From an uncultured delta proteobacterium (GTDB taxonomy: Bacteria > Desulfobacterota > Desulfobacteria > Desulfobacterales > B30-G6): a DNA stretch of 64,000 nt. A model generated the notes under the pieces. That model was not told the DNA's origin and searched no databases. It worked only from the letters and a program-made list of their open reading frames with translations. The stretch lies in NCBI GenBank assembly GCA_963842925.1, contig CAWJIL010000017.1:178833-242832 (forward strand), written 5' to 3'. The position numbers and the translations under genes were made by a program. Shown one piece after another: positions 17,004-53,510 of the stretch (position 1 is its first letter; each line of letters starts with the position of its first letter).

Positions 17004-17029
17004 CTTTTCAGTTCGAGGCATATTACCGA
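17004..17029 (-). repeat. Fragment of the ~165-bp repeat (right-arm segment only)
   Basis: Minus-strand TCGGTAATATGCCTCGAACTGAAAAG aligns with the right-arm consensus TCGGTAATATTGCCGTTGAACTTGATAAC. It directly follows the 3' end of the ORF-less intron. Confidence 0.55.
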
Positions 17030-17526
17030 GTCGAGTAGCCCAGGGGAATTTCACCCCCAGGCCCTCTCAGAACGGTACGTGACGATCTCCCGTCATACCG
17101 CTCCTGCCAGCCATTCTCTTGAAACCTCACAGTCTCAAGTCTACGCAGAAAGAAATTCGGTTCCTCCCAGTTTCCTGGTTGACCTTCACTTACTACGAGC
17201 TGGCTCATCCCCTTCGCTCCGGTCCCATTACAGGACCTTCAACACTAATACGGGATGATCCGCCCCCGTGCTTCGCATCGGTACTCTAACGCTCATGGGT
17301 CCTCCACTTGCGTTTCTCCCTTAACATCGAAGCGACAGGTTCCCAAGTTCCACGCAAAAGCCTAACTCAGATTCATGCCACCTTTACGCCGGAGGCCACT
17401 TAGGCAATACACAGGCTCCCCCTAAGCTCATCCTGAACCCCATATAAAAGCTCAGTTTTGACCTCGTCCATTATCTTTCGACGCTTCATCGAATGGTTCG
17501 CTTACGCTCATCTCTCTGAGTCACAC
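17030..17526 (-). mobile_element. ORF-less group II intron-like element (type B, ~497 nt)
   Basis: Minus strand starts GUGUGAC (GUGYG consensus). Canonical domain V at 17070-17103: GAGCGGUAUGACGGGAGAUCGUCACGUACCGUUC, with AGC triad, GAGA loop and AC bulge. Domain VI has a bulged A and ends ..GGGCUACUCGAC at 17030. No ORF. Confidence 0.65.
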
Positions 17527-17553
17527 CTGCCACGATCCTATGCCGTGACTTTT

Positions 17554-19743
17554 GTCGAGTAGACCGGGGTCTTCCATGGCTATAGGTTGTAGTTTGTTTT
17601 CTCTGTTTGCCGCCTGGTTTCCCGGCGGTGCCACATCATCACAGCCTTACCTTCGGTTGTTCCCCGGTCCCTCCACAGAAACGGACAAGCGGATTTCCCA
17701 TACATCCGGCTCTTCGGTCACTCGTTCAGATAGCCTCTAAACTACGAAATGGATTCAGGTCTTTGCGAATACTCACCTTGGGCCACCCGACCCTCTTGAG
17801 TGCCTGTCGGTAGCCTGGCCATGTGTAAGAATTTCGTTGGCTCTTACGATTGAGCCACTTAAACAGTATTCCCTTCACATGATAGAGATAGGTTGCACAC
17901 CTATCCGAGTTATCCGTTATGGCGTAATAGCTCAGATGCCCCACCACGCGCACCTTGGCCTGGCGAAGCATCTCACCTTTCCTCAGAACAGCCCTACTTT
18001 TGCGCGCCCATTCCGTGAACTTACGTAGGCTTTGTGCAAGTTTCTTGCGACTGGTCCGTCGCTTCACCTTGAAGTGCCCATCCCGAGTTTTCCCACAATA
18101 GTGTGTAAACCCCAGGAAAGTGAACTCCTTCGGCTTTTGCCCTCGCCTTTGTGCATCCCTACGCGCAAAACGCCCAAATTCAATGCAGTGTGTCTTCTCT
18201 TCGGCTACTTCCAGGCTAAAAGCTTCAAGCCTGTCTTTTAACCGATTCTCGAAGTGCCTTGCATCTGCTTTGTACCGGAAGCAGGCCAGGAAATCATCGG
18301 CAAAACGGAAATAATAAGCCTCTCCCCGGCACTGCCTCCTGACCCTATGGCTGAACCACAGATCCAGCACATAGTGCAGGTAAATGTTCGACAGCAGTGG
18401 TGACAGGATTGAGCCCTGGGGAGTACCCCTTTCAATGGCTCTAACCAGCCCGTCCTCCATTATTCCGCCCTTTAGCATACGACTGATCAACCTTAGTATG
18501 CGAGGGTCACCAATGCGGTGTTCCAGAAACTTCATCATCCATCTGTGAGAAACTTCATCGAAAAATGCTCTGATGTCTGACTCCACCAGATAGCTAACTC
18601 GCTTCTGCTGGATGGTTCGTCCCAGCCTGCCCAAACACAAATGCTGGCTCCGCTCGGGTCGATACCCATAGCTGCTGTCTTCGAAGATCTCCTCGTAGAC
18701 CCGTTCCAGAGTCTGCTTCACCGCCAGTTCAACTATCTTATCTTCAAAACAGCTGATTCCTAACGGCCGCCCCTTTTCACTGCCCGACTTCGGTATATAG
18801 CTCCGGCGGCTGGGCTGTGGGCGGTATCCCATACGCTTCAGCCGGTCAGTCAAGCTTTCAAGGTTCTCTTCGAGGTTTTCCCCATACTGTTCTTTGGTTA
18901 CGCCATCCACACCGACGGCTTTGTCGTCGTCCAGTGCTTCGTAGCAGTCCCGCAGGTTGTCCAAATCTGTCACATGATGATACAGCGATGTGAACACCAG
19001 ATCCGGCTCCTTGCGAGCCCTCTCTCCTATCCGTGTCAGGTCAGTGCTCATCAATTCTCACTCTTTGCATAGTGTCGATGTTTCCCCTTTCACGGGCAAT
19101 TGACCGTGGAGACCTTCGCTCAGCGGGGATTAGCCGCTTCATCGCTAAACCATTGCGGTTATACTGGTCTCCATCCCTCGCATCGGCGTCTTTTGGTCGC
19201 CTCCTTTTACGTTGGTCGACCATACTCGGTTACTATCCCAACGACCTGGGATGCTTTCACCAAGAACCTTTGGGTGCCTTTTCCGATGCTTGCCTGGTTA
19301 CTCCATCGTCGTTGTCATGCTCGATGCTGTCTGAGACCCCGGGGTGTCGGTTGGTACTCGTCCATAACGCACCTTCCGTTTCGCCTGCGCCCTTTAGGAA
19401 AAGATAGGCACGATCCCAAAATCAGTGTTTCTCGGGGCTATGGGTCAGATTCAGGGCTCACACCCTTCACCTCGCTAGACTCGCGGATTTCCTTATACAG
19501 CTGGGAAATACACTACCGGGCGGCTGACTAGACCTTACCCGGGAGGGCTTATGCTTTCGCATTCCCTCGCGACGCTGAACCAGCGCCAGGTTCGAACCCT
19601 AAACGCTCACAACCCTGGCTCTTTACCAACGCAGCTTTAGGTGGTTTGAAGCCTGCTCCTGCAAGCCGGCTCCGAGGGGCCAAACAACCCTCATCTTTTG
19701 TGCAGTTACGCACACTTTATAGTAAAGTGCGCTCGTGGCGCAC
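17554..19743 (-). mobile_element. Group II intron (type A) encoding an RT/maturase
   Basis: 5' end GUGCGCC at 19743. RT ORF in the domain IV position. Domain V-like segment at 17678-17712, 13 nt after the RT stop. 3' end ..GGUCUACUCGAC at 17554, the same terminal 9-mer as type B. Confidence 0.8.
17726..19054 (-). CDS. Group II intron reverse transcriptase/maturase (no endonuclease domain)
   Basis: RT motifs RPLGISCFEDKIV, GTPQGSILSPLLSNIYL and FRFADDFLACF (YADD variant). C-terminal X/maturase region. 442 aa. Confidence 0.9.
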   Translation of the reverse strand: MMSTDLTRIGERARKEPDLVFTSLYHHVTDLDNLRDCYEALDDDKAVGVDGVTKEQYGENLEENLESLTDRLKRMGYRPQPSRRSYIPKSGSEKGRPLGISCFEDKIVELAVKQTLERVYEEIFEDSSYGYRPERSQHLCLGRLGRTIQQKRVSYLVESDIRAFFDEVSHRWMMKFLEHRIGDPRILRLISRMLKGGIMEDGLVRAIERGTPQGSILSPLLSNIYLHYVLDLWFSHRVRRQCRGEAYYFRFADDFLACFRYKADARHFENRLKDRLEAFSLEVAEEKTHCIEFGRFARRDAQRRGQKPKEFTFLGFTHYCGKTRDGHFKVKRRTSRKKLAQSLRKFTEWARKSRAVLRKGEMLRQAKVRVVGHLSYYAITDNSDRCATYLYHVKGILFKWLNRKSQRNSYTWPGYRQALKRVGWPKVSIRKDLNPFRSLEAI

Positions 19744-19912
19744 TATATGGAGACAAGTCCAATTATCAAGTTTGATGAAATTATTGCCGATACCATATGG
19801 TTATGAGCAGCGTACCATGGAGGGACCTATGAATACAAGATTTGGTCGGTTGTGATTATGATCGCACACCGGTAAAATTTTAGGGGTCTGATATCTACCG
19901 TTTTGTTGGTGG
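19744..19912 (-). repeat. ~165-bp repeat, full copy R1 (gene-direction orientation on minus strand)
   Basis: Aligns end to end with the copies at 29581, 34262, 40641 and 49638. Its right end (..GGACTTGTCTCCATATA) abuts the intron 5' end at 19743. Confidence 0.85.
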
Positions 19913-19999
19913 TATCGGCAATTTTGATATTTAAGGATGGCCGCTTTCATTAACTTTACAAGTTCTCATAAGCACGATTTTGAAACCGTGCTAAACGGG

Positions 20000-20989
20000 T
20001 CATCCTTTCAGCAATGTAATCAATGTAACTTCACTCACGGTATTAAATCGGATGGGGAGGCCTACTGTACCACAACCCTGGCTAGTATAGCCTGTCATCT
20101 TCCTGTATCGCCACAAGCCTCGGTAATATTTTCTGCCATGTTTCAAATGGAGGATGATAGGATACCCTCCGGGTAGGCAAATTTGACCTCCATGTGTATG
20201 GCCACACAGATAAAGTCGATATCCGCTTTCTGCAGCGATATCATATAATGACGGCGTATGTACCAGGGCTATTTTAAATTCATCCGCTGTTTCCTCCAAG
20301 GCAGTAAGTGCTTGGTCTGTATAATAATAATAAGGGTCGTCGATTCCTGTAATCTGTATCCTATTATTGTCTCGGTTGAGAAATGTAGATTCATTGGCCA
20401 AAACTGTAAATCCCATGTTTTCTAATGGGACTGCCATTTGGTAAGTATCATGATTTCCCAGAGTAACGAAAATCCCGTCCTTTGCCCTAATCGTGGAAAT
20501 AATTTTTTCCATTGCTTCAAGCGGGCCTTTAATGCTTCCTCTGGTTTTTGCCCGATAATCTCCAGTCATGACACAGGCGTCATAGTGTAGGTTTTTAATA
20601 CTCTCGCAAATGATACTTACGTATCCTGATAAAAAATCCGCATGAAGATCGGATAAATGTAAAAATGTGTATCCGTGAAAAGCAGAAGGCAAATCGCTGA
20701 ATTGAATACTTTCCCTATTAATAACGATCCGAGTCGCATTATTAAAACCTGACTTATACAATCCGATGGTTTTTAAAAACACCCCGAAATATTTGATTAA
20801 TAATTCGAAAAGTGACCAATGACGCCTTCGTTTCTCACCATACCGCCGATATTTATAGATATCCGCTTCGAGAAGGGACCTTGTCAACAGCCATAATAGG
20901 CGCCTGTCGGTCTCAGCCTTAAGCCGCTGTATATTTCTGTCCGGCAGCGGAATTGAACATAAAGTTTTCTTCAAAATGGATTTTGGCAA
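20000..20989 (-). CDS. Metallophosphoesterase (calcineurin-like)
   Basis: Motifs LHLSDLHAD, GDY, GNHD, GHTHGGQ. TTG start per the track. Begins ~30 nt downstream of repeat R2. Confidence 0.85.
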   Translation of the reverse strand: MPKSILKKTLCSIPLPDRNIQRLKAETDRRLLWLLTRSLLEADIYKYRRYGEKRRRHWSLFELLIKYFGVFLKTIGLYKSGFNNATRIVINRESIQFSDLPSAFHGYTFLHLSDLHADFLSGYVSIICESIKNLHYDACVMTGDYRAKTRGSIKGPLEAMEKIISTIRAKDGIFVTLGNHDTYQMAVPLENMGFTVLANESTFLNRDNNRIQITGIDDPYYYYTDQALTALEETADEFKIALVHTPSLYDIAAESGYRLYLCGHTHGGQICLPGGYPIILHLKHGRKYYRGLWRYRKMTGYTSQGCGTVGLPIRFNTVSEVTLITLLKG

Positions 20990-21020: not shown

Positions 21021-21142
21021 TATGCGATAACAATGCCCACGGTAGCATGGCAGATGCGATGAATGCAAGATTTAGCCTGTTGTGATTATTTTCGCACACC
21101 GGTAATATTTTAGGGGTCTGATAACTGTGTTTTTGTTGGAGG
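21021..21142 (-). repeat. ~165-bp repeat, partial copy R2 (lacks outer right arm; centre variant 2)
   Basis: ..CCCACGGTAGCATGG..GAATGCAAGATTTAGCC..TTCGCACACCGGTAATATTTTAGGGGTCTGATAAC..GTTGGAGG aligns with R1 and R12. Confidence 0.75.
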
Positions 21143-21159
21143 TATTGCAGGCCAAAGAT

Positions 21160-21324: not shown

Positions 21325-22191
21325 CTATTTGGTACAATCATCAGGACAGTTCAACTCTGTTTCACCACCCCAAGGTTCGCAATAGGCGTCGCCGCAAACG
21401 GTTGGTTGATCGACACATATGACGAAAAATTCTACTTGTAACTGATGGACAGTGCTCTCGCAATTAAACCGAAATGCCCATGATCGGTCCAGAACACCAT
21501 CGTCCCTGCCCGGCCATGGGTATGATCCTACCTCTATGCATGGATCGTTGTCTTCCCAAGATACTGTTTTCCAACCACCGCTAATCGCCAGATCGGCACC
21601 GTAACACGATACAATCTCTTCATAATTGGCAACTCCGGGAGCAATAGCTCTCCATAAATACTTGAAGTAGTATGCGCCAACTGCGTCCTGGCCAGGTGGT
21701 CCTTCCGGCCCCTCTGGCCCCGGCTCACCCTGCGGGCCTTGTTCACCTTGAGGGCCCGTGTCACCGGTATCACCTTTTAGACCAGGCTCACCAGGATCCC
21801 CCTTGTCACCTTTAGGACCGGCGTCACCCTGTAGTCCTTGAAGACCTTGTGGCCCCGTGTCCCCGGTATTGCCCTTATCACCTTGTGGCCCTTGCTCGCC
21901 TTGCGGCCCCGGCTCACCCTGAGGTCCTTGGCCACCCTGAGGTCCTACTGGACCTACTGGGCCAACTGGTCCTTCCGGACCAGGTAATAGCTGAATATTA
22001 TTAATAGCATCCCATACAGCGGGCAAACCACCCTGCATATTTGCAATCGCCGCTGCGTTCTTATCTGCCTTTGATTTGGTGCTTGAAACATCTGTCTGTA
22101 GCTCCTGAATGTCAGTATCATCAACAGCCCATACATTGCCGCATAAAAGGATAGACAATACCACAGCAATTAAAATGAATCCTATCTTCAT
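21325..22191 (-). CDS. Secreted collagen-like triple-helix repeat protein with Cys-rich C-terminal domain
   Basis: ATG at 22191 preceded by GGAGGAGGAG. Signal peptide [22 protein letters not shown]. About 33 uninterrupted G-X-Y triplets ([16 protein letters not shown]...GPPGQ), then a ~125-aa domain with 8 Cys. Confidence 0.85.
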
Positions 22192-22869
22192 ACTCCTCCT
22201 CCTTTTCTGTTGAATGAATAACAAAATAGGTAAAGCATGCGTTGGGAGCTATCATAACTGCATGAAATATCAGCATCAGATCAGCAGGTGTCGGCCAGGT
22301 TCAGGTGGTACAGAATAGCTTTATCTTTAAATAGCACGCAAGAATCATGCGGAAATGTCGGATGCAAAAAAAAGTTATTATTATAGATAGTTAGACTTTA
22401 TAGTTGACTTGTAAGAAGGTAAAATGAGAAGTCAATGTTATAATTATTGGGTAGATAAGGTTAGAATCTCTGTGCTTTATCGCCAGAACCTTTGATGTAT
22501 GATTAGAGTTTTATCCATTGTCCGAGATTTGGCAATGATAATGTTAAAAAGATTTTGACTATTTTACAACGGGATTTTCAAGATAGGGTATGCAGGAAGG
22601 ATAATTGATAAAGCTCATATGTACGAAGCCGTGTAGCAACGGTATTGCACGATAGATCTATATGGGTATTGTATTTCAATCTGGTATGATGGAACCTGGA
22701 CAAATTGCCAGTTCGGGATATTTCAAAGGCATGATCTGTGCTGAGCCAGAACGCACATTGTGCCATATTAACCTCAAAGCCTTCTACTATGCCGCCATCT
22801 ATGGATTCTGTACTGAACCAGGGCGTACCTCTCCTATTGTTTTGTAGCTTCAGATATCGATTTGTCCGG

Positions 22870-24084
22870 TCAACCCAATAAACAAGCAAGTTGGGTCTGT
22901 GGTCCTGCCCGGCCTTTTGGGATGTCGGCAAAAAACTGCATTTTCCCTTCGGTACAGCAAGGACAAACAGTGATATCTGTCCCCGTCAGCTGAAGCATTA
23001 TTTCCTCAAGGGTAGCTGCTTCATTCTCATCGAGAGAAGACACTCCCATCAATTGCCTGATGGTGTTTAAGTTATCATTTCGATTGCGGTTGGCTAAAAA
23101 GCCGTAATGCCGGATTCTGACAAAGCCGTTTGGGAGACTGTGTAAAAGGAACCTTCGGATAAACTCCATCGCTGTGATGGTGATTATTTCCGTTATTTTT
23201 TTCTTTCGGTTCTTGGCGGTAAAGGAGACCATACCGTTTTCAAGTCTTTTAATGCGGCTGTTGGCAATGGCCACCCGATGGGTATAACGTGCCAGGTATT
23301 CAAGCACATGTTCCGGGCGTTTGACTGGTTCACGCACGCTGACCACCCAGTTTTTGGCATACAGCTTGTTTTTGAAGTCGCCAAAGGATCTGCCGGCAAA
23401 TTTGAGCGAGCCGGTTTTACGGGCATGCTTAATACGTTCCATAAACTTGCCGCGAAAGACCTGTGATAATGCCTCTTCGTTGAAGAGATAATCGTTTTTT
23501 ACCGGAAGCCACTCCTTTTTGTTCCCGAGCAGAACACCACCGGCTACCAAACAATGCAAATGAAAATGAGCTTTGAGCTTTTGATCCCAGGTGTGTAAAA
23601 CAGCCAAAAATCCTAATTTGCCGTTGAGTTCGTTGTTGCCAAAGGTCAGAAGGGTTCTGGATGCAGCAGCAAAAAGGATGTTGAACATCACCTTTTTGTT
23701 GTTTAAGATGACGGTGTTCAACTCATGCGGCACGGTAAAAACCACATGGAAGTAACTGACCGGCAAGATCTCGTTTTTTCGTTTTTCCAACCATCTTTCG
23801 CGTGGCATATGCTGGCATTTGGGGCAGTGGCGATTACGGCAGGAATGATACGTGATGCGCACAGCTCCACAATTGTCACAGCGTTCGATATGGCCACCCA
23901 GACGGGCGGTGCGGCAGTTCAAAAGGTCGGTTGCGATTTTACGATGTTCCGGCCATAAAGGATATTCGGCTTTATAGTCATTAAGATGATGACGCAGAAT
24001 GTCGGCGACCTCCGGGGTTTTATGATCAGGTTTTATGATTTGGGTCATCGTTTCTGTCCTCCTTTCCTGCATGTTTTTGGTCAA
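22870..24084 (-). CDS. IS91 family transposase (Zn-binding N-terminal domain + Y2 HUH domain)
   Basis: CRTARLGGHIERCDNCG..HSCRNRHCPKCQ zinc-binding domain. HFHLHCLV (HUH-like). C-terminal RYTHRVAIANSR and CPCC. Confidence 0.85.
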   Translation of the reverse strand: MTKNMQERRTETMTQIIKPDHKTPEVADILRHHLNDYKAEYPLWPEHRKIATDLLNCRTARLGGHIERCDNCGAVRITYHSCRNRHCPKCQHMPRERWLEKRKNEILPVSYFHVVFTVPHELNTVILNNKKVMFNILFAAASRTLLTFGNNELNGKLGFLAVLHTWDQKLKAHFHLHCLVAGGVLLGNKKEWLPVKNDYLFNEEALSQVFRGKFMERIKHARKTGSLKFAGRSFGDFKNKLYAKNWVVSVREPVKRPEHVLEYLARYTHRVAIANSRIKRLENGMVSFTAKNRKKKITEIITITAMEFIRRFLLHSLPNGFVRIRHYGFLANRNRNDNLNTIRQLMGVSSLDENEAATLEEIMLQLTGTDITVCPCCTEGKMQFFADIPKGRAGPQTQLACLLG

Positions 24085-24916
24085 TGAGATCCAAAGGACT
24101 TGGGATCGTTGACAGAGTTTGGCGGCTCACATGCAGATAAATCATGGTGGTGGTCAGTCTCGTATGGCCCATTAAAACCTGTATTTTCCGGATGTCGTAT
24201 CCAGCCTCCAGGAGGTGTGTGGCGAAGCTGTGACGCAATGTGTGGACACCCGAGCCCCTTTTTACTCCTGCCTTCATTCTGGCCTCTTCGTATACCGAAC
24301 GGATAGACTCGTATGACAAGGGTTTATCTTTCTTTTTTCCGAATGAAGATGGGAACAGGTAGGTGTCGGGACGATATTTACGATAATAGATTCTCAGTTC
24401 GCCAAGCAGTCTTTTTGAGAGCAGTGTATAGCGATCCTTTTTGCCTTTACCATCTTCGACTTTGATCAGCATGGCCTTGCTGTCGATGTTTTCTGATTTG
24501 AGTTTAAGGGTTTCGCTGGCCCTGAGTCCTGCCGAGTAAGTGGTCATCAGAATCATTTTGTGTTTGAGGTTGTTGGTAGCGTGGATGATATCCCAGATAT
24601 CTTCCATGGGCAGGACTTGTGGGAGTTTTCTCGGCTTTCTCGTGAGGCTGTAGGTTATGGATATCTCCTTTTCAGCAACATTTTTGTAAAAGAATCGAAG
24701 TCCGCTAAGAACTGCGCAGCAGCTGTTGGGAGCATTACCCTTGTCAAGCTTGAGATAGAGAAGGTAATCCTCGATTTTTTCTTTGGTGAGGTTATCCGGT
24801 GCCTGGTTATAGAACTTGGCAATCCCTTTGACAGCGGCGAGATAGGACCTCTTTGTGTGCTTGGAAAGATTTTTAAGTTCCATAATCCTGATCATTTTTT
24901 GACGTAGTTCTGCCAT
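24026..24916 (-). CDS. Tyrosine site-specific recombinase (phage integrase family)
   Basis: Catalytic-type residues in LRASE, HTLRHSFATHLL and GHTRLTTTMIYLH. Overlaps the transposase start by 59 nt. Confidence 0.85.
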   Translation of the reverse strand: MAELRQKMIRIMELKNLSKHTKRSYLAAVKGIAKFYNQAPDNLTKEKIEDYLLYLKLDKGNAPNSCCAVLSGLRFFYKNVAEKEISITYSLTRKPRKLPQVLPMEDIWDIIHATNNLKHKMILMTTYSAGLRASETLKLKSENIDSKAMLIKVEDGKGKKDRYTLLSKRLLGELRIYYRKYRPDTYLFPSSFGKKKDKPLSYESIRSVYEEARMKAGVKRGSGVHTLRHSFATHLLEAGYDIRKIQVLMGHTRLTTTMIYLHVSRQTLSTIPSPLDLIDQKHAGKEDRNDDPNHKT

Positions 24917-25057
24917 GTCATACCTCCTTTGTTGTGGGTTATTAACGTCTCGGAGGTATTTTATACGATCAGGAGAAAAGAAACGATCGATAACGTAGGT
25001 AGGGTTTATTGATTAAAACCTTGGGGTGGGAAAGCTACCGCGGAGCGGTTTCGTACG

Positions 25058-25100
25058 TATGGAGATAATCACTGTCTTGATCGAATTACAGATACCATAA
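25058..25100 (-). repeat. ~165-bp repeat, right-arm-only fragment R3
   Basis: TATGGAGATAATCACTGTCTTGATCGAATTACAGATACCATAA aligns with the start (plus-strand reading) of R7 and R1. Lies ~140 nt upstream of the recombinase start. Confidence 0.5.
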
Positions 25101-25501: not shown

Positions 25502-25510
25502 TTCCACGGC

Positions 25511-25608: not shown

Positions 25609-25677
25609 ATGTCATCACATCAATAGCGCCTTTTTTCAGAGGTCTCAGGAGTCATACGTAAAACGTTGAAACTATAT

Positions 25678-27320: not shown

Positions 27321-27328
27321 CTGTGATG

Positions 27329-44398: not shown

Positions 44399-47300
44399 AT
44401 GCAATGCCCGAAGTGTCAGTTTGAGAATCCCGAGGAAATTAAATTTTGTGGTGAATGCGGTGCTAAGTTAGAAAGACTTTGTCCAAGCTGTAATTCGCCA
44501 AGCCCGCCAAACTTTAAATTTTGCGGCGAATGCGGGCATTCCCTCCCGAAGCCCATCTCTCCGCGTCCAAAGACTTCTCCTTTGACGAGAAGATTGCCAA
44601 GATTAAAAAATACCTTCCCCAAGGCATCACCGAGAAGATCCTCTCCCAGCGCGACAAGATCGAAGGGGAACGGAAACAGGTCACTGTCATGTTCTGCGAC
44701 ATGATGGGATTTACGCCGCTTTCCGAGAATCTTGACCCCGAGACCATGTATACAATGATGGACCAGGTCTACGAGATTCTCATCCACAAAGTCCATGACT
44801 ATGAAGGAACAGTGAATGAGATGACGGGTGACGGGATCATGGCTTTGTTCGGTGCTCCTATTGCACTGGAAGATGCCCCTCAGAGGACGTTGGATGCGGC
44901 CATGTCCATTCACCGGGAGATGATAAGGTTCAATGAAAAGATAAAACAGGAAAAGGGGGGCCTTCCCCCAATCCAGATGCGTATCGGCATTCATACTGGC
45001 CTCGTCGTAGTTGGCAGCTCTGGGGAATGATCTCCGGGTGGAATTTAAGGCGGTAGGGGATACGGTGAACCTGGCTGCCCGAATGGAACAGTTGGCGGAA
45101 CCTGGCACTACCTATGTGACTGAAGATACCTTCAAACTCACGGAAGGGTACTTCCGGTTTGAGGCTTTAGGTGACAAAGAAATCAAGGGCAAGGAGAAAT
45201 CCCTTCGTGTTTACCGGGTTATTGCACCCAGTAGAAGGAGGACACGCTTTGATGTCAGTACCGAAAGGGGATTGACCCCCTTGGTTGGGAGGCAGCGGGA
45301 GCTTGAACTTGTTCTCGACGGTTATGAACGCTCCAAGGAGGGGAGAGGCCAGGCCATCTCCATCATCTCCGAGGCAGGGATCGGAAAATCAAGGATTCTC
45401 TATGAGTTCCGAAAAGCTGTAACGAATGAGGATGTCACTTTCCTGGAGGGGAGGTGCCTCTCCTACAGCAGGAATGTTGCCTATTATCCTATCGTAGACC
45501 TACTTAAAGCCAACTTTGACATCCAGGATACCGATACGGGTCAGGAGACCAGAGAAAAGGTTACCAAAGGCCTCCAGTCTATGAAGGTCAATGAAGCCTC
45601 AGCATTACCCTATCTATTAGAACTCCTTTCCGTGAAAGAGAGTGGTATCGACCAGATTCCCTTGAGTCCGGAAGCCAGGAAAGAGAGAACCATTGAGGCC
45701 ATAAAGAAGATTGTCCTCAGAGGCTCAGAAATCAGACCTCTCATCATGGCCACAGAAGACCTTCACTGGATGGACAGCAGTTCTGAGGATGTCATGAAGG
45801 AACTTTTAGAGAGCATAGCGGGAACAAGGGTATTTTTGATCTTTACCTACCGACCGGAATTTGTTCATACGTGGGGGAGCAGATCCTACCATAGCCAGGT
45901 GACGTTGAACCGTCTATCCAACCGTGAAACGTTGACCATGGCAACCAACATCCTTGACGTTCCATATATTGAGAGAAGCCTGGAAGACCTGATCCTGCAA
46001 AAAACGGAGGGGATTCCTTTCTTCATCGAGGAATTCATCAAATCTCTCAAAGACTTGAGGATCATCGAAAGGAAGGACAAGACATACCAGCTATCCAGAA
46101 ACATCAAGAAACTCTCCATCCCTTCTACAATTCAGAGTGTCATTATGGCCCGGGTGGATGCTCTGACGGAAGGAACAAAGGAAGTTCTTCGCACCGGTTC
46201 TGTGATCGAAAGAGAGTTCAGCTATGATCTAATCAAGAGCGTAACCGGCCTGCCTGAACAAGAGCTCCTTTCCCATCTCTCCACCCTAAAGGATTCAGAG
46301 CTTCTCTATGAAAGGGGCATCTATCCTAAATCCACCTATATCTTCAGGCACGCCCTCACCCGGGAGGTGGTCTATGATTCCATCCTTATCAAAAAGAAAA
46401 AGCAACTCCACGAAAAGATAGCAGGTATCATGGAAGAGATCTACAAAGAAGATATCTGCTACCATTATGGTGTTCTGGCCGGTCATTGCATTGCCAGTGA
46501 GAAATACGAGAAGGGGGCGGAGTATGCAAGGCTCGAAGCAAAAAGATACCAGAAGGCGGGATCGTTCAAGGATGCCATTGAGTATGCGAAGAAGAGCGTG
46601 AACAGTTGGGAAAAGTTGCCCCAGACGGAAGCGAACCAGAAAAAACTCATTGATGCCCGGACAACACTCGCAAATTATTATTTGGCTATGAATTTCTATC
46701 CTCCTGCGCGAGAGGCCGTTGAACCGATTCTTGATTTGGCCATAGCGTTAAATTACCGAATAAAGCTTACTACAATATACAAATCAATTGGGCTCCATTA
46801 TATTTGGGTTGAAGAGGACATCCATAAAGGGCTTGAGTTTATTGACAAAGCAACGGCAATTGCCGAGGAAGTAGGAGACTATCTTTCATTGTGGATTGTA
46901 CTCTATCAATCAGGTAGTTTCCAGCCCTTGATTTCGGAATTTAAGGAGGCCCATGACCGACTTCAACAATGTCTCGATTTCAGTCTACAGGCAAAGGATC
47001 CAGAGGCGATATCATTTTCAAAAGGCTCTATTTCTTTTTGCTATCTACTTGAGGGCAAGGTGAACCTTGCTTATGAATTTGCCCAAGAAGCATTGATGTT
47101 GGCACAAGAAACAGGTGATATCTATATCAAAGGGATGGCTTGCTCCGTTTATGGTTCGGCATGTTATCATAAAGGGTTATTTGATGAGGCGAAAACCTAT
47201 CTTTTAGAAGGGGTTTCTTCCTATGAAAAATCGACTCCCATTTCCTGGATCGCATGGGCTTATGCATACTTGGGATTAATGCAAGTTGATTTGGGCGAAT

Positions 47301-47764
47301 ATGATGATGCTGTGAATTATTATAAAAAAGTGATTTCAGTATTGGAAAACGCTAATTATATGCCTTCCATAATTAAATATTTTCAGTCATGTATGATGAG
47401 AGCTAAAGTGTTAAGGCATGATCAGGATGTCGTATTAAGTGAATTAGTTGCATGTTATCAAAACTATAAATTAACGCTGTGTAAAGGCTGGACAGCCAGA
47501 AATATAGGAGATGTCATGCTGAATATAGACGATGATCACATCTCGGATGCAGCAGTCTGGTTTCAGAAGGCCATCGAAGTAGACACGAGAAACGGATTTA
47601 GGTTTCAGTTGGCGCAGGATCATGCTCTATATGCCGACTGGTTCAAGAGGAAGGGAGATATTAAGGGAGCCAAGGAGCAACTCACCAAGGCCGTCGACAT
47701 CTTCAGGGAATGCGGTGCCGATAGATGGGTGGAAAAGTATGAGAAACAATTGGCTGAACTCTAA
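44399..47764 (+). pseudogene. Double zinc-ribbon + class III adenylate/guanylate cyclase + AAA ATPase + TPR protein, interrupted by two frameshifts
   Basis: Three track ORFs (44384.., 44521.., 45011..) together read as one protein: CPKCQ..CGECG x2, then KQVTVMFCDMMGF..GDGIMALFG..RIGIHTG, then LGNDLRVEFKAVGDTVNLAARM, then GIGKSR (P-loop) and TPRs. Frame changes lie near 44565-44572 and 45013-45017. Confidence 0.8.
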
Positions 47765-47874: not shown

Positions 47875-48010
47875 TACCAACGATTCGGTAGATATCAGAC
47901 CCCTGAAATTTTACCGGTGTGCGAAAATAATCACAACCGACCCTTTCTTGCATTGATACTGGTTCCCATGCTACCGTGGGCATTACCATATGGTATCGGT
48001 AATATTGCCT
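47875..48010 (+). repeat. ~165-bp repeat, near-full copy R12 (centre variant 2)
   Basis: ..CCAACGATTCGGTAGATATCAGACCCCTGAAATTTTACCGGTGTGCGAAAATAATCACAAC..CCATGCTACCGTGGGCATTACCATATGGTATCGGTAATATTGCC. Ends ~70 nt before the ATG at 48084. Confidence 0.8.
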
Positions 48011-48083
48011 GAAATTTTGAAATGTCAGGTGTGAGTGATTTTTTCCGAGGATAAGATATGCAAAATTTCATGGAAGATACATT

Positions 48084-49442
48084 ATGACAGCACCAAAATG
48101 GCTTGCCGATCTGGATTGGGAGAGTGTAGCCACCGAGGCGCTTGAAATATTCCAGACGCTCCTTAGAATCGACACGCAGAACCCTCCTGGGAATGAGAAG
48201 GAGGCCTGTGATGCCATCTCAAAGATACTTGATGGCGAAGGTATTCCCTTTGAGGTATTTGATGTGGCCCCTGGGCGGGCTAACCTTGTCGCTCGCATTC
48301 CTGGCACCGGTGAGTCCGAGCCGGTTCTCATCTCCAGCCATCTTGATGTGGTGCCTGCTGCCGCAGAAGAGTGGACCCACCCACCTTTCGGCGCCGAGAT
48401 CGCTGACGGTTATGTCTGGGGGCGTGGTGCCATTGATATGAAGAACATGACGGCCATGGAGCTATCGTGTTTTCTGGTGGCGTCACGCCACGGAAACGGC
48501 CAACATAAAAGCGATCTGATTTTGGCGGCGGTTGCTGATGAAGAGGCAGGATGCGAACTGGGCTCACTGTGGCTGGCTAAGAACCACCCAGAGAAGGTGA
48601 AGGCCCGTTACGCAATTGGGGAATTCGGCGGATTTACGCTGCACGTTGGTAAGGCGCGGATTTGTCCTGTACAAATCGCTGAAAAAGGCGTCTGCTGGCT
48701 GCGGGTTACGGCTCGTGGCGAGGAGGGGCACGGCGGGCTTCCAGGCAAGGATCATGCGGTGGCTCGAATTGGTAAAGCGGCGAGTCGGCTGGTAGACACA
48801 TCGACGCCGCTTCATGTGACACCGGTGATGGCGCAGAATATCGGGACCATTGCTGACACACAGCCTTTCCCAAACTCTTTTTTGTTCCGGCAGGTTCTCA
48901 ACCCACTCATGAGCGATCTTGTGATAGAGAAGGTGCTTCCAGACAAAAACGTCGCCCGCACTCTCTTCGCTCTTCTCCACAATACGGCTAATCCTACTAT
49001 CATTCGTGCTGGTTCCATCATCAATGCGGTTCCGGCATCGGCTGTTATGGAAGTGGACGGTAGGACGCTCCCCGGACAAACTCCCGAGGATCTGATCCGC
49101 GAGGTAAAAAATATCATCGGGCCGGATTTCGAGATCGACATCATTCGGTCCATGCCGCCAGTAGAGGGAAACCCAAACGATCCGATCTTAGACATCATCC
49201 GAGCGGTTCTCAAGAAGCTGGATCCTGCTCTGGTAATGGTCCCAAATCTGGTCTGGGGCTTCACTGATGCCAAGGCGTGGTCTTCACTGGGCGCTACCTG
49301 CGTTGGATTTTCTCCGGTGATTTTGGGCCCAGAAACACCGTTTAATACCTTGATGCATCGGGTTGACGAACGCGTTCCAGTTGAAGGTTTTAAGAAGGGT
49401 GTCCGAACACTTATTGAGGTCGTTTCCCGTATCATAGCGTAG
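48084..49442 (+). CDS. M20 family metallopeptidase (ArgE/DapE/ACY1/CPG2 type)
   Basis: SHLDVVPA, GRGAIDMKN and ADEEAG metal-ligand motifs. 452 aa. Confidence 0.85.
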   Translation: MTAPKWLADLDWESVATEALEIFQTLLRIDTQNPPGNEKEACDAISKILDGEGIPFEVFDVAPGRANLVARIPGTGESEPVLISSHLDVVPAAAEEWTHPPFGAEIADGYVWGRGAIDMKNMTAMELSCFLVASRHGNGQHKSDLILAAVADEEAGCELGSLWLAKNHPEKVKARYAIGEFGGFTLHVGKARICPVQIAEKGVCWLRVTARGEEGHGGLPGKDHAVARIGKAASRLVDTSTPLHVTPVMAQNIGTIADTQPFPNSFLFRQVLNPLMSDLVIEKVLPDKNVARTLFALLHNTANPTIIRAGSIINAVPASAVMEVDGRTLPGQTPEDLIREVKNIIGPDFEIDIIRSMPPVEGNPNDPILDIIRAVLKKLDPALVMVPNLVWGFTDAKAWSSLGATCVGFSPVILGPETPFNTLMHRVDERVPVEGFKKGVRTLIEVVSRIIA

Positions 49443-49637: not shown

Positions 49638-49805
49638 ATATCCAACAAAAACAAGGTTATCAGACACCTAAAATTCTACCGGTGTGCGAAAATTATCGCA
49701 ACAGACGAAATCTTGTATTCATAATCCTTGCCGTGATACCTTGGTGATGACCAGATGGTATCGGTAATATTGCCGTTGAACTTGATAACTGGACTTATCT
49801 CCATA
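49638..49805 (+). repeat. ~165-bp repeat, full copy R13
   Basis: Roughly 85% identical by eye to R11 over the whole length. Its right end ..GGACTTATCTCCATA is followed, after CATCACCA, by the intron 5' end. Confidence 0.85.
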
Positions 49806-49813
49806 CATCACCA

Positions 49814-50045
49814 TTGCGACACGAAGTCGCGTATTTTGACTGTTCAGCGGAGGTATTTAGCCTTTGTCTGAACCCAGTGTCCCGTCGCTGCGATCCTATG
49901 GAAGCATGCGCCCAAGGTGCATCCTTGACGGGTATGAAGCCTTCCTGACAATGCGCCGAAGTTCACTTGTGTGAACGGTGTGGAAGCCGTGAGGTGGAAG
50001 CGCTCCTGGAAGCTCCATCCGGGTGAGGGGTTAGGATAGGATACT
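49814..50045 (+). mobile_element. 3'-truncated copy of the type C ORF-less group II intron (5' ~230 nt only)
   Basis: Near-identical by eye to the first ~190 nt of 27320..26823 (minus). It then diverges, and no domain V or VI is present. Confidence 0.7.
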
Positions 50046-50798
50046 GTCACAAAAAGCAATTGGGCATATTACGTTTTTTATCAGAAAGGAGATCCTGATA
50101 AAGCCTATGAGATTAGTAGAGAGGCGATTGCGTTAGCAGAGGAAAGTGGAGATATCTTTTCAAAAGCTTGGGCATATGTAGCTTATGGAGCCTCTTGCTT
50201 TGCTAAAGGCTTTTTAGATGAGGCCCTCGATTATAATTCAAAAGGTGCTGACTGTTGTGATAGGATCGATGCTCTGAATGCTAATTCCCTGGCACAACAA
50301 AATATGGCCCTGATTCATTTTGCAAAAGGAGAGTACAAGGAGTCCGAATACCGTTTCAGTCAATTAATCTCATTCATGGAACAATTTGGAGCATTACCTG
50401 AATGGATCAACGTTAGTCGTATTGGTTTAGTAATGTCCAGGATTATGAATAATGACAAAGATATAGATCTGGAATTATTAAGGGATTACGCTCATGGTAT
50501 AAAGGCAGAGGTTGGCAAAGCTCGGGCATTCAGATATATGGCACATATTATGTTGAACCTCGATAATGATTGCTTGACCGAAGCGGAATATTGGATCAGA
50601 AATGCTATTGAAACAGATAGAAAGAATTGTCTGATGTTCTATTTGGGGGAAGATTATGCGCTTTACGCCGATTTTTACAAACGTAAAGGCGATCAAATAA
50701 AAGCAAAAGAAAATCTGAACAAAGCAATAGGAATCTTCAAGAAATGCGGAGCTGATGGATGGGTTGAGAAATATGAGAAAGAACTGACCACGCCTTAA
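50046..50798 (+). pseudogene. 5'-truncated paralogue of the TPR C-terminal region of 44399..47764
   Basis: An in-frame reading from ~50046 parallels the last ~250 aa of the cyclase-ATPase-TPR protein (..YALYADFYKRKGDQIKAKENLNKAIGIFKKCGADGWVEKYEKEL versus ..HALYADWFKRKGDIKGAKEQLTKAVDIFRECGADRWVEKYEKQL). It abuts the intron fragment. Confidence 0.75.
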
Positions 50799-50923
50799 TA
50801 AATTCAAATAAATTTAAAAATCCATTTTCAACATCTTGTGGTTCTGCCAATTATGGCGAATTGCTGATACTGTTGTAGATCAAAGGTTTTTTCAGGATTG
50901 AAATATCTGTACTATCTCCAACA

Positions 50924-51030
50924 AAACGTTAGAGATCAGACTCTTAAAATATTACTGGTGTGCGAATATAATCACAACAGGCAAAATCTTGCATTTATAA
51001 GCCTTACCGTGATAGCCTGGTGATAACCAG
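50924..51030 (+). repeat. ~165-bp repeat, partial copy R14 (right arm missing)
   Basis: ATCTCCAACAAAACGTTAGAGATCAGACTCTTAAAATATTACTGGTGTGCGAATATAATCACAAC..CCGTGATAGCCTGGTGATAACCAGA. Lies ~70 nt before the ATG at 51100. Confidence 0.75.
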
Positions 51031-51099
51031 AGAGCAAGATGTTTTCAGCAAGGAATGTTGTGACATTCAAATGCCCTGTGAAACTCAGAGAGTGGATCA

Positions 51100-51795
51100 A
51101 TGTTTAATAATATTTCTGATCAAGCAAAAACGAAGGATTATAGCAAGTCTCTCCAGCAAGTTGAGAATGCAAGACTAATAACGATCTTAGCTCTTGCCAA
51201 ACTGGCTGAATATCGTGATGATGAAACCGGCTTTCACCTCGAACGAATCAGAGAGTACACAAAAATCATTGCCGAAGAGATGGCAACTATGCCAAAGTAT
51301 GTTGGCTATATCACACCTGATTATATCGAGGATTTATTTCAGTCATCCATTTTACACGATATTGGAAAAGTTGGTATTCCAGACGCTATTTTACTAAAGC
51401 CCGGTAAGCTCACACCTGAAGAATTTGAAAAAATAAAAGAACATTCTATGCTTGGTGGGGATGTTCTTACTGATATTGAAGCCCAGATCAATACTCGGAC
51501 ATTTCTGACCCTTGGTAAAGAAATAGCGTACTATCATCATGAAAAATGGAATGGAAAAGGATACCCGAAAGGACTTAAGGGAGATGACATACCGCTTTCA
51601 GCCAGGATAGTTTCTTTAGCAGATGTGTATGACGCACTTACCTCCAAAAGAATCTATAAGGAAGCGATGCCGCATAACAAAGCAAAAGAGATAATCGTCC
51701 TTGAAAAAAAGCGTAGCTTTGATGCTGATGTAGTGGATTCCTTCTTGGCTCGTGAATCTGATTTCAGAGATCTTCTAAATGTTGGCAGAAGATAA
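51100..51795 (+). CDS. HD-GYP domain protein (c-di-GMP phosphodiesterase type)
   Basis: HDIGKVGIPD, HHEKWNGKGYPKGL, ADVYDALTSKRIYK. Confidence 0.9.
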   Translation: MFNNISDQAKTKDYSKSLQQVENARLITILALAKLAEYRDDETGFHLERIREYTKIIAEEMATMPKYVGYITPDYIEDLFQSSILHDIGKVGIPDAILLKPGKLTPEEFEKIKEHSMLGGDVLTDIEAQINTRTFLTLGKEIAYYHHEKWNGKGYPKGLKGDDIPLSARIVSLADVYDALTSKRIYKEAMPHNKAKEIIVLEKKRSFDADVVDSFLARESDFRDLLNVGRR

Positions 51796-51848: not shown

Positions 51849-53414
51849 ATGATTGATACAATAAAACAATTCTTTTGGAATATCGTCTCTAGCAATCTAC
51901 CGACTGATTATGATCTTGAGGCCCTTCGGAAAATATTCTTACTGAACATGTTAGCGATCCTTGGTATCTTTTTTTTGGCGCTTTTAGGGACAATAACCAT
52001 AATTCAGATGGATTATTTTTTGGGTGCAGTAGATTTTACAATCCTTGGGTTTATAATTGTCCTGTTTTTGTACCTGAGAAAGACAAAAAAAAATGAATTG
52101 GTCGGGGTGCTCGGCACAATAACGGTAGGTATTTTTTATTTCTATCTCGTCGCCTACGGCGGCATCAGTAACACAGCTTACGTTTGGGCTTTCACATACC
52201 CCTTAATATCGCTTTTTTTGCTTGGAACAAAACTGGGCTCATTAACGTCATTGTTATTATTAGGCATGATTTGTATTGTTTTCATGTTTGGGACGAAAGT
52301 TGCCTTTTTTACGACCTATAGCACCGATCTTTCAATCCGATATATATCAGCCTATATCATAATACATCTGTTTTCCTACATAATGGAAAAAGTTCGTTCC
52401 ATCGTCCAAAACCGTCTCGAGACTGCAAATATTAAAATTAAAAAAACCCTTAAAAAAGTTCAGGTTAAATCTATCCAACTTGCTGAATCCAATGAGGGCT
52501 TGCAGATAGAGATTTCCGAGCGTAGGAAGGTTGAGAAAGCCTTGAAGGAGAGCGAAAAACGATTTCGCTCATTGTTCGAAGAATCCAAGGACGCAATTGT
52601 CAATACTGATAAGAAAGGTAACTTGCTTCTGGTCAATCCGGCAGGCATGGCGCTGTTTGGGCTGACAAATGCTGAATTAGCGTCTATCAATTTCCAGGAG
52701 CTGTACGTAGATCCTGAAATGGTCCGAAGATTTACAACTGCCATACGCGAAAAGGGTCATATTCGCGATTTCGGCGTTCAGTTGCGTGGAAAAGACGAAA
52801 AAATCATGGACTGTTTGATGACAGTCATCACCAAGCAATCGGACGATAGTGCTTTGATGGGGTATGAAGGAATTATTCGGGATGTAACACCATACAAAAA
52901 AATGGAGGAAGAACTCCGACGATTGGCCACTATCGATTCTCTCACCGGCATCAACAATCGGCGTAACTTTTTGGATCTGGCACAAAGGGAAATTAGCCGT
53001 TCCAGCCGATATGACCGTCCTTTTTCTATGGTTATGCTTGACATAGACTACTTTAAAAAGGTCAACGACACTTACGGTCACTCTGTCGGGGATAAAGTGC
53101 TGATTGAATTCTGCGCAGTCTGCCTGAAACAACTTCGTGAGAACGATATCATGGGCCGATTGGGAGGTGAGGAGTTTGCCATTGCCTTGGTGGAATGTGA
53201 TCCAGAAATGGCGGCGATCTTTGCCGAGCGCATCAGGCAGGCCGTGGCTTCGCACGCGGTGCCCATCGGCAGTGAGGAAATACGCTTCACAGTTAGCCTG
53301 GGAGTGACCAGTATGCGGCAGGGGTGCGATCTGGATTCAATTCTTGAACGCGCTGACAACGCTTTGTACAGGGCCAAGGAAAATGGGAGGAATCAGGTAC
53401 AATCCATTGAATAA
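51849..53414 (+). CDS. Membrane sensor diguanylate cyclase (multi-TM + PAS + GGDEF)
   Basis: About 6 N-terminal TM segments. PAS-like region (SEKRFRSLFEESKDAIVNTD..). GGDEF domain with GGEEF active site and RxxD-like upstream site. Confidence 0.9.
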   Translation: MIDTIKQFFWNIVSSNLPTDYDLEALRKIFLLNMLAILGIFFLALLGTITIIQMDYFLGAVDFTILGFIIVLFLYLRKTKKNELVGVLGTITVGIFYFYLVAYGGISNTAYVWAFTYPLISLFLLGTKLGSLTSLLLLGMICIVFMFGTKVAFFTTYSTDLSIRYISAYIIIHLFSYIMEKVRSIVQNRLETANIKIKKTLKKVQVKSIQLAESNEGLQIEISERRKVEKALKESEKRFRSLFEESKDAIVNTDKKGNLLLVNPAGMALFGLTNAELASINFQELYVDPEMVRRFTTAIREKGHIRDFGVQLRGKDEKIMDCLMTVITKQSDDSALMGYEGIIRDVTPYKKMEEELRRLATIDSLTGINNRRNFLDLAQREISRSSRYDRPFSMVMLDIDYFKKVNDTYGHSVGDKVLIEFCAVCLKQLRENDIMGRLGGEEFAIALVECDPEMAAIFAERIRQAVASHAVPIGSEEIRFTVSLGVTSMRQGCDLDSILERADNALYRAKENGRNQVQSIE

Positions 53415-53467
53415 TATTATATACGTTCCTGTTTGATAGTAATCATAAAAAAACTCTATCTCCTATT

Positions 53468-53510
53468 CCATGCTACCGTGGACATTACCATATGGTATCG
53501 GTAATATTGT
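53468..53510 (+). repeat. ~165-bp repeat, partial copy R15 (centre variant 2 + start of right arm)
   Basis: CCATGCTACCGTGGACATTACCATATGGTATCGGTAATATTG is almost identical to the same part of R12. Lies ~40 nt before the ATG at 53550. Confidence 0.7.

Follow-up and report, generated by a model that had tools for sequence, protein, structure and literature searches.

What is the short non-coding sequence that recurs between the genes of a 64,000-nt stretch of contig CAWJIL010000017.1 (positions 178,833–242,832, forward strand) from an uncultured delta proteobacterium, and how did it come to be present about once per gene? This whole stretch is called the window, and coordinates without a locus label refer to it. 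The recurring sequence is a repeat of about 172 bp. It probably represents both the miniature, non-autonomous form and the recombination site of a small mobile element that encodes a tyrosine recombinase, and a rough probability of 60% is assigned to this reading. The element is most likely previously undescribed, and most likely it builds cassette-like arrays.

The repeat family

A 25-nt degenerate core pattern is found seven times in the window and not once in 100 shuffles. A direct-repeat scan and an alignment of the five copies claimed to be full show a single family with sharp edges and a length of about 170–172 bp. An nhmmer search of the window gives five full copies, four long partial copies and about six short pieces. 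Copies up to 36.5 kb all lie on the minus strand and those from 37.9 kb onward all on the plus strand; the strand of every copy is that of the neighbouring genes. The family and its strand arrangement agree with an earlier note on this DNA, referred to as the original prediction. Most of the partial pieces listed there are also found by nhmmer, but the piece at 28951 is detected only weakly (E about 2). The identity between full copies had been put at 80–90%; pairwise values are 63–82%, with a mean of 73%.

The repeat is not limited to this contig. A core-pattern scan of species-representative genomes produced 40 blocks of 8 kb (L-numbers are locus labels), which come from several metagenome-assembled genomes (MAGs) named 'uncultured delta proteobacterium' and from MAGs of Desulfobacterales and Thermodesulfobacteriota. 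With later loci included, nhmmer gives 128 matches in 45 sequences, of which 86 are near-full copies. Repeat orientation is uniform within each sequence, with the window and L036 as the only exceptions. Contiguous blocks form arrays, e.g., one of 18 copies over 36 kb and one of 11 over 21 kb, with a median spacing of 1665 bp and a density of about one gene per repeat. Single dispersed copies are also present on many contigs. The window is in places 94–96% identical to MAG CAVUUM01, but is rearranged relative to it.

Long forms encode a tyrosine recombinase

A long form of about 1.07 kb has the same left and right arms as the short repeat, placed around a tyrosine recombinase gene. Six independent long copies are present, on contigs L011, L012, L044, L045, L051 and L052. 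Each has the order left arm, terminator-like hairpin, recombinase gene on the opposite strand and a promoter-like site, TTGACA-N17/18-TAnnnT, that points toward the right arm. In all contexts examined, the recombinase gene runs antisense to the neighbouring genes. The original prediction had proposed a search for an autonomous element with the same ends, and these six contigs provide a candidate. Copies of about 235 bp with an alternative centre (L011:1589–1825, L032:6105–6341 and two in L013) show a terminator-like hairpin with a T-run followed by TTGACA-N18-TAGACT, both called on the sense strand by a scan. In these copies the long form's hairpin and promoter-like site are retained, which fits a deletion series from long to alternative-centre to short form. 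The short repeat thus shares its ends with a longer, enzyme-coding copy and is linked to it by intermediates, as is characteristic of a non-autonomous derivative.

The recombinase has 278 aa when a frame change is allowed in a run of A residues near codon 20, where the deletion of one A joins the two frames. The run is A9 in L045 (2292–2306), L051 (910–924) and L052 (5952–5966), and A6GAA in L011 and L012 (about 870–880 in L012). To yield the full-length protein, the mRNA must lack one A or the ribosome must shift by +1. Relatives with identities of 76% or less are intact at exactly 278 aa, and all those with identities of at least 89% are called without the N-terminus, in agreement with a conserved frame-change site of the A9 or A6GAA type. 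The run is conserved across JGI, ENA, NCBI and Logan assemblies, so a sequencing error is unlikely. Control of an enzyme by a frame change in an A-run is found in transposases of insertion sequences (IS) of the IS1, IS3 and IS630 types.

The protein matches Pfam Phage_integrase at 1e-17, with an additional weak SAM-like N-terminal match. Its best matches are XerA-like in NCBIfam and XerA and XerD in the PDB, and it is closest to XerA, XerD and XerC. The catalytic motifs R..HxxR..H/W..Y are legible as RIGE, HDLRRH, LRHS and QIY. There are 3669 homologues at E<=1e-10, mostly on contigs of about 1–2 kb, which is the pattern of multicopy elements in short-read assemblies; a plasmid collection has no homologue at 1e-15. 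Identity to the tyrosine recombinase of an IS91-like element in the window is 23–24%. Distant relatives with 65–68% identity, at L046:3125–3230 and at L048:1476–1590 and upstream, have their own arms, which are conserved between the two loci, and a hairpin of the same type follows the recombinase stop codon (GGGTGAATCC…GGATTCACCC). From these sequences the recombinase family seems to consist of sub-families with different arms.

Ends and candidate recombination sites

Every element begins with CTCCAAC. At the left end each position of CTCCA is 90–100% conserved, and at the right end CTCCA is present in 70 of 74 copies, so the pentamer noted originally at both ends is a property of the family. 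The last 26 bp of most copies form an inverted repeat, termed site R, with the consensus GATAACTGGA-CTTGTC-TCCATnTATC. It has two 10-bp inverted arms and a variable 6-bp spacer. At least seven of the ten arm positions are complementary in 49 of the 74 copies, and the mean is 6.5/10 compared with 1.4–3.4 in shifted registers. When two mismatches are allowed, the motif gives 69 sites in or at repeats and four weak sites elsewhere. A near-invariant ATC just beyond the right end as originally drawn belongs to site R. The TTGATA that had been proposed as part of a promoter is the outer part of this recombinase-type inverted repeat; the short form has no conserved promoter, and its -10-like hexamer is not conserved.

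A central inverted repeat, site C, has the form GGTACCGTGG-N8-AGATGGTATC, with 5.8/10 complementary positions compared with 1.4–2.4 in other registers. Inverted arms of the 10-6-10 type around a short spacer represent the geometry of dif, lox and FRT sites. The geometry of site R and site C, together with the catalytic residues of a two-domain enzyme, is that of a simple Xer-like recombinase with a dif/lox-type core site. The sites in an array are all in the same orientation. The left flank appears by eye to be more like the left half of the central site than like the site R arm. The two repeat ends share the direct pentamer CTCCA, with no terminal inverted repeat, and the flanks are not duplicated; these are not the properties of a plain MITE (miniature inverted-repeat transposable element) with target-site duplications.

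Breakpoints and units

Comparisons between loci show where sequence similarity stops. L044 and L045, from different samples, are 87.7% identical over 1.93 kb, exactly from right arm to left arm, and their flanks are unrelated. The shared unit holds the recombinase and a nitroreductase cargo gene behind the outward promoter-like site. Homology begins at CTCCAAC and stops at TC(A/C)AT. Between L011 and L012 the element is 92.8% identical and the right flanks differ. The same arm-bounded unit is thus found in different contexts.

A second type of unit is bounded by right ends. L014:2983–4095 and L027:5574–6686, from one genome, are 99.6% identical, and their upstream repeats are different variants. 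The identity runs from a point within TCTCCATGTATCGG in the upstream repeat to immediately behind TCTCCATGTATC in the downstream one, i.e., it covers one exact unit of leader, gene and repeat between two right-end sites. There are four further right-end breakpoints. In three pairs of loci (L015/L040, L033/L039 and L002/L014) the two members have different repeat variants ahead of a shared downstream gene. In the fourth pair, L002/L012, the shared gene is preceded by a short copy in one of the genomes and by a long copy in the other. Two left-end breakpoints are found, one at CTCCAAC in L044/L045 and one within 5 nt in L027/L005.

The original prediction offered, as its second interpretation, a recombination site that delimits gene cassettes. 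Given the candidate recombinase, the 10-6-10 site and the breakpoints at the ends, this is the interpretation closest to the evidence, and the underlying observation was largely right. However, the repeat also appears to move on its own as a discrete unit, both with the recombinase and without it, which the cassette picture alone does not predict.

An O-methyltransferase gene with flanking repeat ends is 99% identical between L002:4963–5795 and L012:1024–1856, in MAGs of different species. In a third MAG, L017:2457–3082 is 96–97% identical to L002:5175–5775 and L012:1044–1669. Upstream, the gene is partnered by a short repeat in L002 and, in L012, by a long repeat that carries the recombinase. 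These matches suggest a recent exchange between lineages.

Proposed mechanism and points against it

In the proposed mechanism the few long copies would be the source of the recombinase, which would be produced in small amounts by way of the A-run frame change and supplied in trans. It would bind site R, and probably also site C and the left-end CTCCA, and strand exchange would occur in or beside the spacer and CTCCA. Whole elements would be inserted and excised by the recombinase. Right ends of different copies would also recombine with each other, and units of leader, gene and repeat would be duplicated, moved and swapped; this shuffling could build co-oriented arrays with one gene per repeat. 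Orientation may follow the genes because of the terminator and promoter polarity of the longer forms, or because arrays grow by insertion at existing sites. The junction of an element circle would read GATAACTGGA-N6-TCCAACAAAA. We infer that the recombinase acts on these sites, as we do the exact cleavage points and the reason for gene co-orientation.

Several observations weigh against this mechanism. Co-orientation with genes and occurrence once per gene are not explained by plain transposition. No orthologous pair of a filled and an empty site is present among the sequences compared, and the sole candidate pair, position 36514 of the window and L026, is cut by the end of the locus. No head-to-tail junction of a circle or tandem was found locally, and a metagenome scan for it gave 42 matches, all of them unrelated sequence. 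As neither an empty site nor an excised circle was found, we infer mobility from the sequences compared. There is no copy of this recombinase in the window, where the sole tyrosine recombinase is that of the IS91-like element. About one third of the copies have right-arm variants that lack a good palindrome, and the left-end site is weak, with a flank that matches the site R arm at 3.3/10 positions against a background of about 2.5. In copies that are split by cargo genes the positions of the internal junctions vary, which a simple two-end model does not explain. The distances to genes given below are based on crude open reading frame (ORF) calls.

The junction scan also detected an unrelated sequence, TTTTCAGTTGCCACGGCTGATCAATTAACTGGATAACTGGAGCAGAATCCAACAATTCC, which is conserved in more than 30 soil metagenome contigs (L054, L056, L057, L059, L061–L074, L076, L077, L079, L080, L082–L084 and L087–L094) and has one of two alternative continuations. 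It probably marks where another abundant element ends.

Likeness to integrons

In a strictly integron-like cassette system the repeat would be an attC-like 3' site that never moves alone, and the Xer-like recombinase would be the integrase. Many properties of the arrays resemble such a system. The arrays are co-oriented, with about one promoter-poor gene per repeat, and the unit consists of a gene and its 3' repeat with the point of exchange at the far end of the repeat. An exact unit of leader, gene and repeat is duplicated between two right-end sites, and the O-methyltransferase unit, with identities of up to 99%, is found in three species-level MAGs with different upstream partners. The recombinase is transcribed divergently from an outward promoter-like site, as intI is from Pc, and group II introns and IS elements appear to home to the sites, which is also known from integrons.

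The differences concern the enzyme, the site and the boundaries of the repeat. The recombinase lies within a repeat and not beside an array with attI. It is a plain Xer-like enzyme, with scores to the integron-integrase models TIGR02249 and PRK15417 of 38.8 bits (cutoff 265) and 29.4 bits (cutoff 435), and the window has no IntI-like gene. attC sites are folded R''-L''/L'-R' hairpins with a GTTRRRY core, whereas the sites described here are about 172 bp, lack this architecture and core, and have a 10-6-10 core of the double-strand type. The repeat ends are CTCCAAC... and ...TCCATnTATC, not RYYYAAC/GTTRRRY. The sequence on either side of arm-bounded units differs, which makes the left end a boundary as well. 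The repeat is thus itself bounded and appears to move, and single copies are dispersed on many contigs as well as arrayed. The strict form of the integron explanation is considered rather unlikely.

A looser form is a tentative possibility, namely that the arrays are a second gene-capture system of the integron-like kind, with an independent evolutionary origin. In place of attC it would use a self-mobile module of about 170 bp with a dif-like site, and an IS-sized element inside one module would supply the frameshift-controlled Xer-like recombinase. Promoter-poor cassettes, many with signalling genes, would be assembled, duplicated and exchanged within and between Desulfobacterales genomes.

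RNA, coding and structural properties

The strict co-orientation with genes could also be explained if the repeat were kept for the control of neighbouring genes, either as a functional RNA or as a regulatory module (for example a promoter, a small RNA, a 5' leader or a 3' untranslated region). The alternative-centre and long forms, with a terminator-like hairpin and promoter-like site in the sense direction, would be consistent with this, and the antisense strand of the repeat folds better than shuffled sequence (z about -3). However, RNAalifold analysis of 74 copies gives no sense-strand consensus structure, and with Ribosum scoring it gives short local hairpins only, on both strands. A search of the window with Rfam 15 at the gathering score shows matches to group II intron pieces only and none to the repeat. 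At E<=1 the sole match of one repeat copy is a chance match to RybB of 15 bits. The original statement that the repeat matches no known repeat or RNA family is supported by these searches.

The internal hairpins described originally are present as inverted repeats, but they show no compensatory change. Three inverted repeats are 79% paired, compared with 25–46% in slid registers. Their covariation is 0.063, compared with 0.066 in shuffles, and 437 of 500 shuffles have a value at least as high. Inverted repeats that are conserved without covariation are palindromes as expected for protein-binding DNA. With no consensus fold and no covariation, a structured RNA was rejected. The downstream genes are functionally unrelated, and the short form lacks a conserved -10 element. 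The proposal of a mobile promoter or leader is therefore supported only for the rarer alternative-centre and long forms, with their hairpin followed by TTGACA-N17/18-TAnnnT, and not for the short form, in which neither a promoter nor an RNA fold is conserved. A functional RNA or regulatory module as the explanation for the family is quite improbable.

The short copies do not code for protein, in line with the absence of an ORF stated originally. An antisense ORF of 42 codons (METSPVIKF...AHR*) is incidental: it has stops in many copies and no 3-base periodicity, with entropies of 0.72, 0.67 and 0.78 by codon position. Pairing of the two ends with each other, as in attC, was also considered and rejected. 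Mutual information is dominated by linked local modules, none of which joins left and right, and RNAalifold shows no pairing between the two repeat ends on either strand.

The palindromic character of the inverted repeats also bears on the suggestion that the repeat is a palindrome-associated transposable element (PATE) of the IS200/IS605 family, a single-strand transposon relic mobilised by a Y1 HUH transposase. The same pentamer at the left flank and right end, the subterminal inverted repeats and the uniform orientation are properties of that type. But the inverted repeats behave as double-strand palindromes without compensatory change, and the element with matching ends encodes an integrase-fold tyrosine recombinase instead. 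No Y1 HUH or TnpB gene was seen in about 400 kb of repeat-bearing DNA, in which 342 ORFs were clustered and the recurrent clusters belong to other families. This origin, which the original prediction had put forward, is highly improbable.

Gene context of the arrays

Gene distances were determined for 84 near-full copies in 41 sequences, with crude ORF calls that accept only ATG as start codon. Of 80 upstream genes, 75 are co-oriented with the repeat, as are 64 of 76 downstream genes. The left end is a median of about 60 nt past the upstream stop codon, and the right end is about 200 nt from the next ATG. In the window both the stop-to-repeat and the repeat-to-start distances are 25–200 nt, with 25–100 nt from the right end to the following start codon. 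Across the near-full copies, the tie of the left end to the upstream stop is at least as close as that of the right end to the next start. The description of a repeat that ends just upstream of start codons thus holds locally and is not the defining relation.

Genes that flank repeats include those for metallophosphoesterases, M20 peptidase, aldehyde dehydrogenase, OsmC, GNAT and methyltransferase. Recurrent families among the 342 ORFs of the repeat loci are cyclase-TPR proteins, group II reverse transcriptases, an IS91 pair, an IS1182-like DDE transposase and a tyrosine recombinase. A family with adenylate/guanylate cyclase, AAA_16 and TPR domains, with 30 paralogues, dominates the repeat-adjacent genes. 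Its members in the window are at 303–1361, 44521–47764 and 50304–50798, and 26 further ORFs are in other loci. The cyclase-TPR genes have a conserved leader (…TGATATTTGGTTTTC…) that begins within about 10 nt of the repeat right end.

This raises the question of whether the repeat is passive, i.e., an intergenic module that was copied along with the expanding cyclase-TPR paralogues by duplication and homologous recombination, with no dedicated recombinase. The dominance of this 30-member family and the abutment of its leader on the repeat would be expected. On the other hand, many unrelated genes are also flanked by repeats, both edges of the repeat are sharp and conserved, copies have a recombinase-type core site, and long forms with the recombinase are found between the same arms in six contexts. 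Passive copying is regarded as improbable, and the repeat is better described as the probable miniature form and recombination site of the recombinase element.

Repeat copies in the window

On the plus strand, the full short-form copy at 49639–49815 consists of left arm, centre and right arm (nhmmer model positions 4–180, E=3e-53, and alignments). Its site R at 49784–49809 is GATAACTGGA-CTTATC-TCCATACATC, a 10-6-10 inverted repeat that is a candidate crossover site, and its 3' neighbour is a 5' fragment of a group II intron of about 230 nt. The second full plus-strand copy is at 40642–40815 (model 4–178, E=9e-49), and the right arm of its site R (40786–40811) is degenerate (TCATTCAATC). Three full copies are on the minus strand. 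That at 34263–34441 (model 2–180, E=3e-42, and alignment) has site R at about 34269–34294, with the sequence GATAGCTGCA-TTTCTC-TCCAAATATC. That at 29572–29747 (model 3–178; direct-repeat family D10) has GATAGTTGCA-CTTGCC-TCCATCAATC at 29576–29601. In the third, at 19744–19914 (model 2–172), site R starts from 19767 and is cut by a group II intron after TCCATATA; the rest (TC GGTAATAT...) resumes at 17029. A weak piece at 17004–17029 on the minus strand is weakly detected in the profile search. The intron, at 17030–19743 on the minus strand, is recognized by Rfam RF01999, RF02005 and RF00029 and by its junction sequences, and contains a reverse-transcriptase ORF at 17726–19054 on the same strand (Pfam RVT_1).

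Two copies are split, with genes between the left and right parts, as the nitroreductase gene is in L044. The left part at 50913–51032 on the plus strand (model 2–121) is followed by an HD-GYP gene at 51100–51795 and a PAS-GGDEF gene at 51849–53414, both on the plus strand and identified by Pfam. The right part that closes this copy is at 53466–53524 on the same strand (model 94–152, E=4e-11) and holds site C. The second split copy is on the minus strand. Its left part is at 25495–25609 (model 4–118), its cargo is a DUF2087 gene at 25181–25501 (Pfam DUF2087), also on the minus strand, and it is closed by a right-arm remnant at 25058–25098 (...ATGGTATCTGTAAT...GATTATCTCCAT) that is recognized from its sequence and a weak nhmmer match. 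Both left parts are long partial copies.

The two other long partial copies are a truncated copy at 21032–21144 on the minus strand (model 2–114, E=3e-33), directly upstream of a metallophosphoesterase gene at 20000–20989 (Pfam), and a copy without the right terminus at 47876–48025 on the plus strand (model 6–155, E=5e-41), upstream of an M20 peptidase gene at 48084–49442 (Pfam). An internally deleted copy at 32417–32497 on the minus strand joins model positions 5–42 to 128–179 (families D8 and D10), has site R at 32422–32447 and directly follows the 3' end of a group II intron. Right-arm pieces are located at 27319–27378 on the minus strand (model 120–180, E=2e-5) and at 37967–38047 on the plus strand (model 97–176, E=2e-7). 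The former is followed by an intron-like 5' fragment at 27160–27320 (Rfam RF02012 at 27118–27261; flank BLAST). The latter is the first element of the plus-strand array, after a GNAT gene at 37484–37912. At the inner edge of the minus-strand array there is an isolated right half-site, GATCTC-TCCATGTATC (36508–36528, minus strand), which is a weak piece. At the orthologous place in MAG contig L026, a repeat right arm is present upstream of the same TCTCCATGTATC (36450–36640 in the window, 7880–8000 in L026).

Other mobile elements and genes around the arrays

A family of group II introns occupies two kinds of position, directly behind CTCCATnTA within the right-end site and directly behind CTCCAA. 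Examples are the intron at 17030–19743 on the minus strand of the window and those at L031:3396, L025:~3360, L035:5369 and L019:~4811. The 5' exons end in TCTCCATATA, TCTCCATGTA, CTTCATGTA, GCTCCAA and CTTCCAA. From these junctions the introns appear to home to repeat ends, a behaviour similar to that of group IIC-attC introns at attC. A sequence unit of about 230 nt that begins with TTGCGACACGAAGTCGCG shows a full-length match of 80 bits to the Rfam group-II D1-D4-7 model RF02012. It recurs directly after repeat copies, with 86–96% identity, a constant end point and no rest of the intron. Copies are at 49815–50045 (plus strand) and 27160–27320 (minus strand) in the window, and at L004:366–598, L005:1918–2149, L023:2730–2962, L038:1945–2177 and L038:5759–5991. 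The unit may be what remains of a truncated intron, or a small element in its own right.

An IS91-family element is located at 22872–25054 on the minus strand, with a Y2 transposase gene (22870–24084) and an upstream tyrosine recombinase gene (24026–24916). It lies immediately after a repeat right end, where ...GATTATCTCCAT is followed by ACGTACG. Copies with 84–85% identity are present in L028 and L040 (84.6% for the comparison of 22872–25054 with L028). A transposase gene of the IS1182/IS5-like DDE type (DUF772 and DDE_Tnp_1_6) recurs inside arrays, at L037:3698–5203, L002:252–1118, L014:7300–7998, L024:20–805 and L031:6329–6673, and represents a third kind of mobile element that accumulates there. 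A large serine recombinase with Resolvase, Recombinase and zinc-ribbon domains is encoded at 53997–55637 on the minus strand, at the outer edge of the plus-strand array. The 1.4-kb zone between the divergent arrays (36.5–37.9 kb) has a gene for an HU/IHF-type DNA-binding protein (36949–37233, plus strand); proteins of this type often assist site-specific recombination. A collagen-like gene at 21325–22224 on the minus strand encodes Gly-X-Y triplets (Pfam Collagen, 1e-15) and has a tandem repeat with an 18-nt period at 21696–21963.

Comparison with known systems

The arrays work most like an integron or a system of Xer/dif modules and spread like an IS with MITE-like derivatives, but the features that define each of these are absent. 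The likeness to dif, to integrative mobile elements exploiting Xer (IMEX) and to Acinetobacter pdif modules is in the simple two-domain tyrosine recombinase, whose closest solved structures are XerA and XerD, in the core site with two inverted arms of about 10–11 bp and a 6-bp spacer, and in the gene modules bounded by sites. The recombinase described here differs in that it is element-encoded and multicopy and is not the host chromosome-dimer resolvase. pdif modules have oppositely oriented XerC/XerD sites that are served by host XerCD, whereas the sites here are in direct orientation, are embedded in a conserved 172-bp module and are associated with an element-borne recombinase. Site R also appears to differ in sequence from the dif site of E. 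coli.

As with MITEs and other non-autonomous IS derivatives, many short copies share their ends with a rare longer, enzyme-coding copy, and there are intermediate deletion forms. Classical MITEs differ in having terminal inverted repeats and target-site duplications in place of the direct CTCCA. The enzyme is an integrase-fold tyrosine recombinase, not a DDE, DEDD, HUH or serine transposase; curated IS families use these four types of enzyme, and we know of none with integrase-fold tyrosine chemistry. Tyrosine is listed among transposase classes in general (PMC8147514). In the literature searched, including a classification of tyrosine recombinases (PMC8138268), no account was found of an element of IS size that has both a simple tyrosine recombinase and miniature derivatives.

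The REPIN and repetitive extragenic palindromic (REP) sequences associated with RAYT are also high-copy intergenic repeats, with one or a few enzyme genes flanked by the repeat. RAYT is a Y1 HUH enzyme, however, and REPs are hairpins of 20–40 bp with no fixed orientation to genes. The secondary mobile elements that home into recombination sites of cassette arrays, i.e., group IIC-attC introns and IS1111-attC elements, resemble those found here. The introns here are assigned to group II only; they differ in that they follow CTCCA(A) or CTCCATnTA and are co-oriented with genes.

Significance

Annotation pipelines label the recombinase as a truncated 'XerD/integrase' and overlook the repeats. The compact recombinase with its defined 26-bp site makes the proposed activity directly testable. 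To our knowledge, the curated IS families include no IS-sized elements that rely on an integrase-fold tyrosine recombinase and have miniature derivatives by the hundreds. If the mechanism is true, it would represent a new chemistry for small bacterial transposable elements, and outside integrons it would be a new route by which gene-cassette arrays are built. It would also explain the breaks in MAG assemblies at such loci and the local expansion of the cyclase/TPR signalling family.

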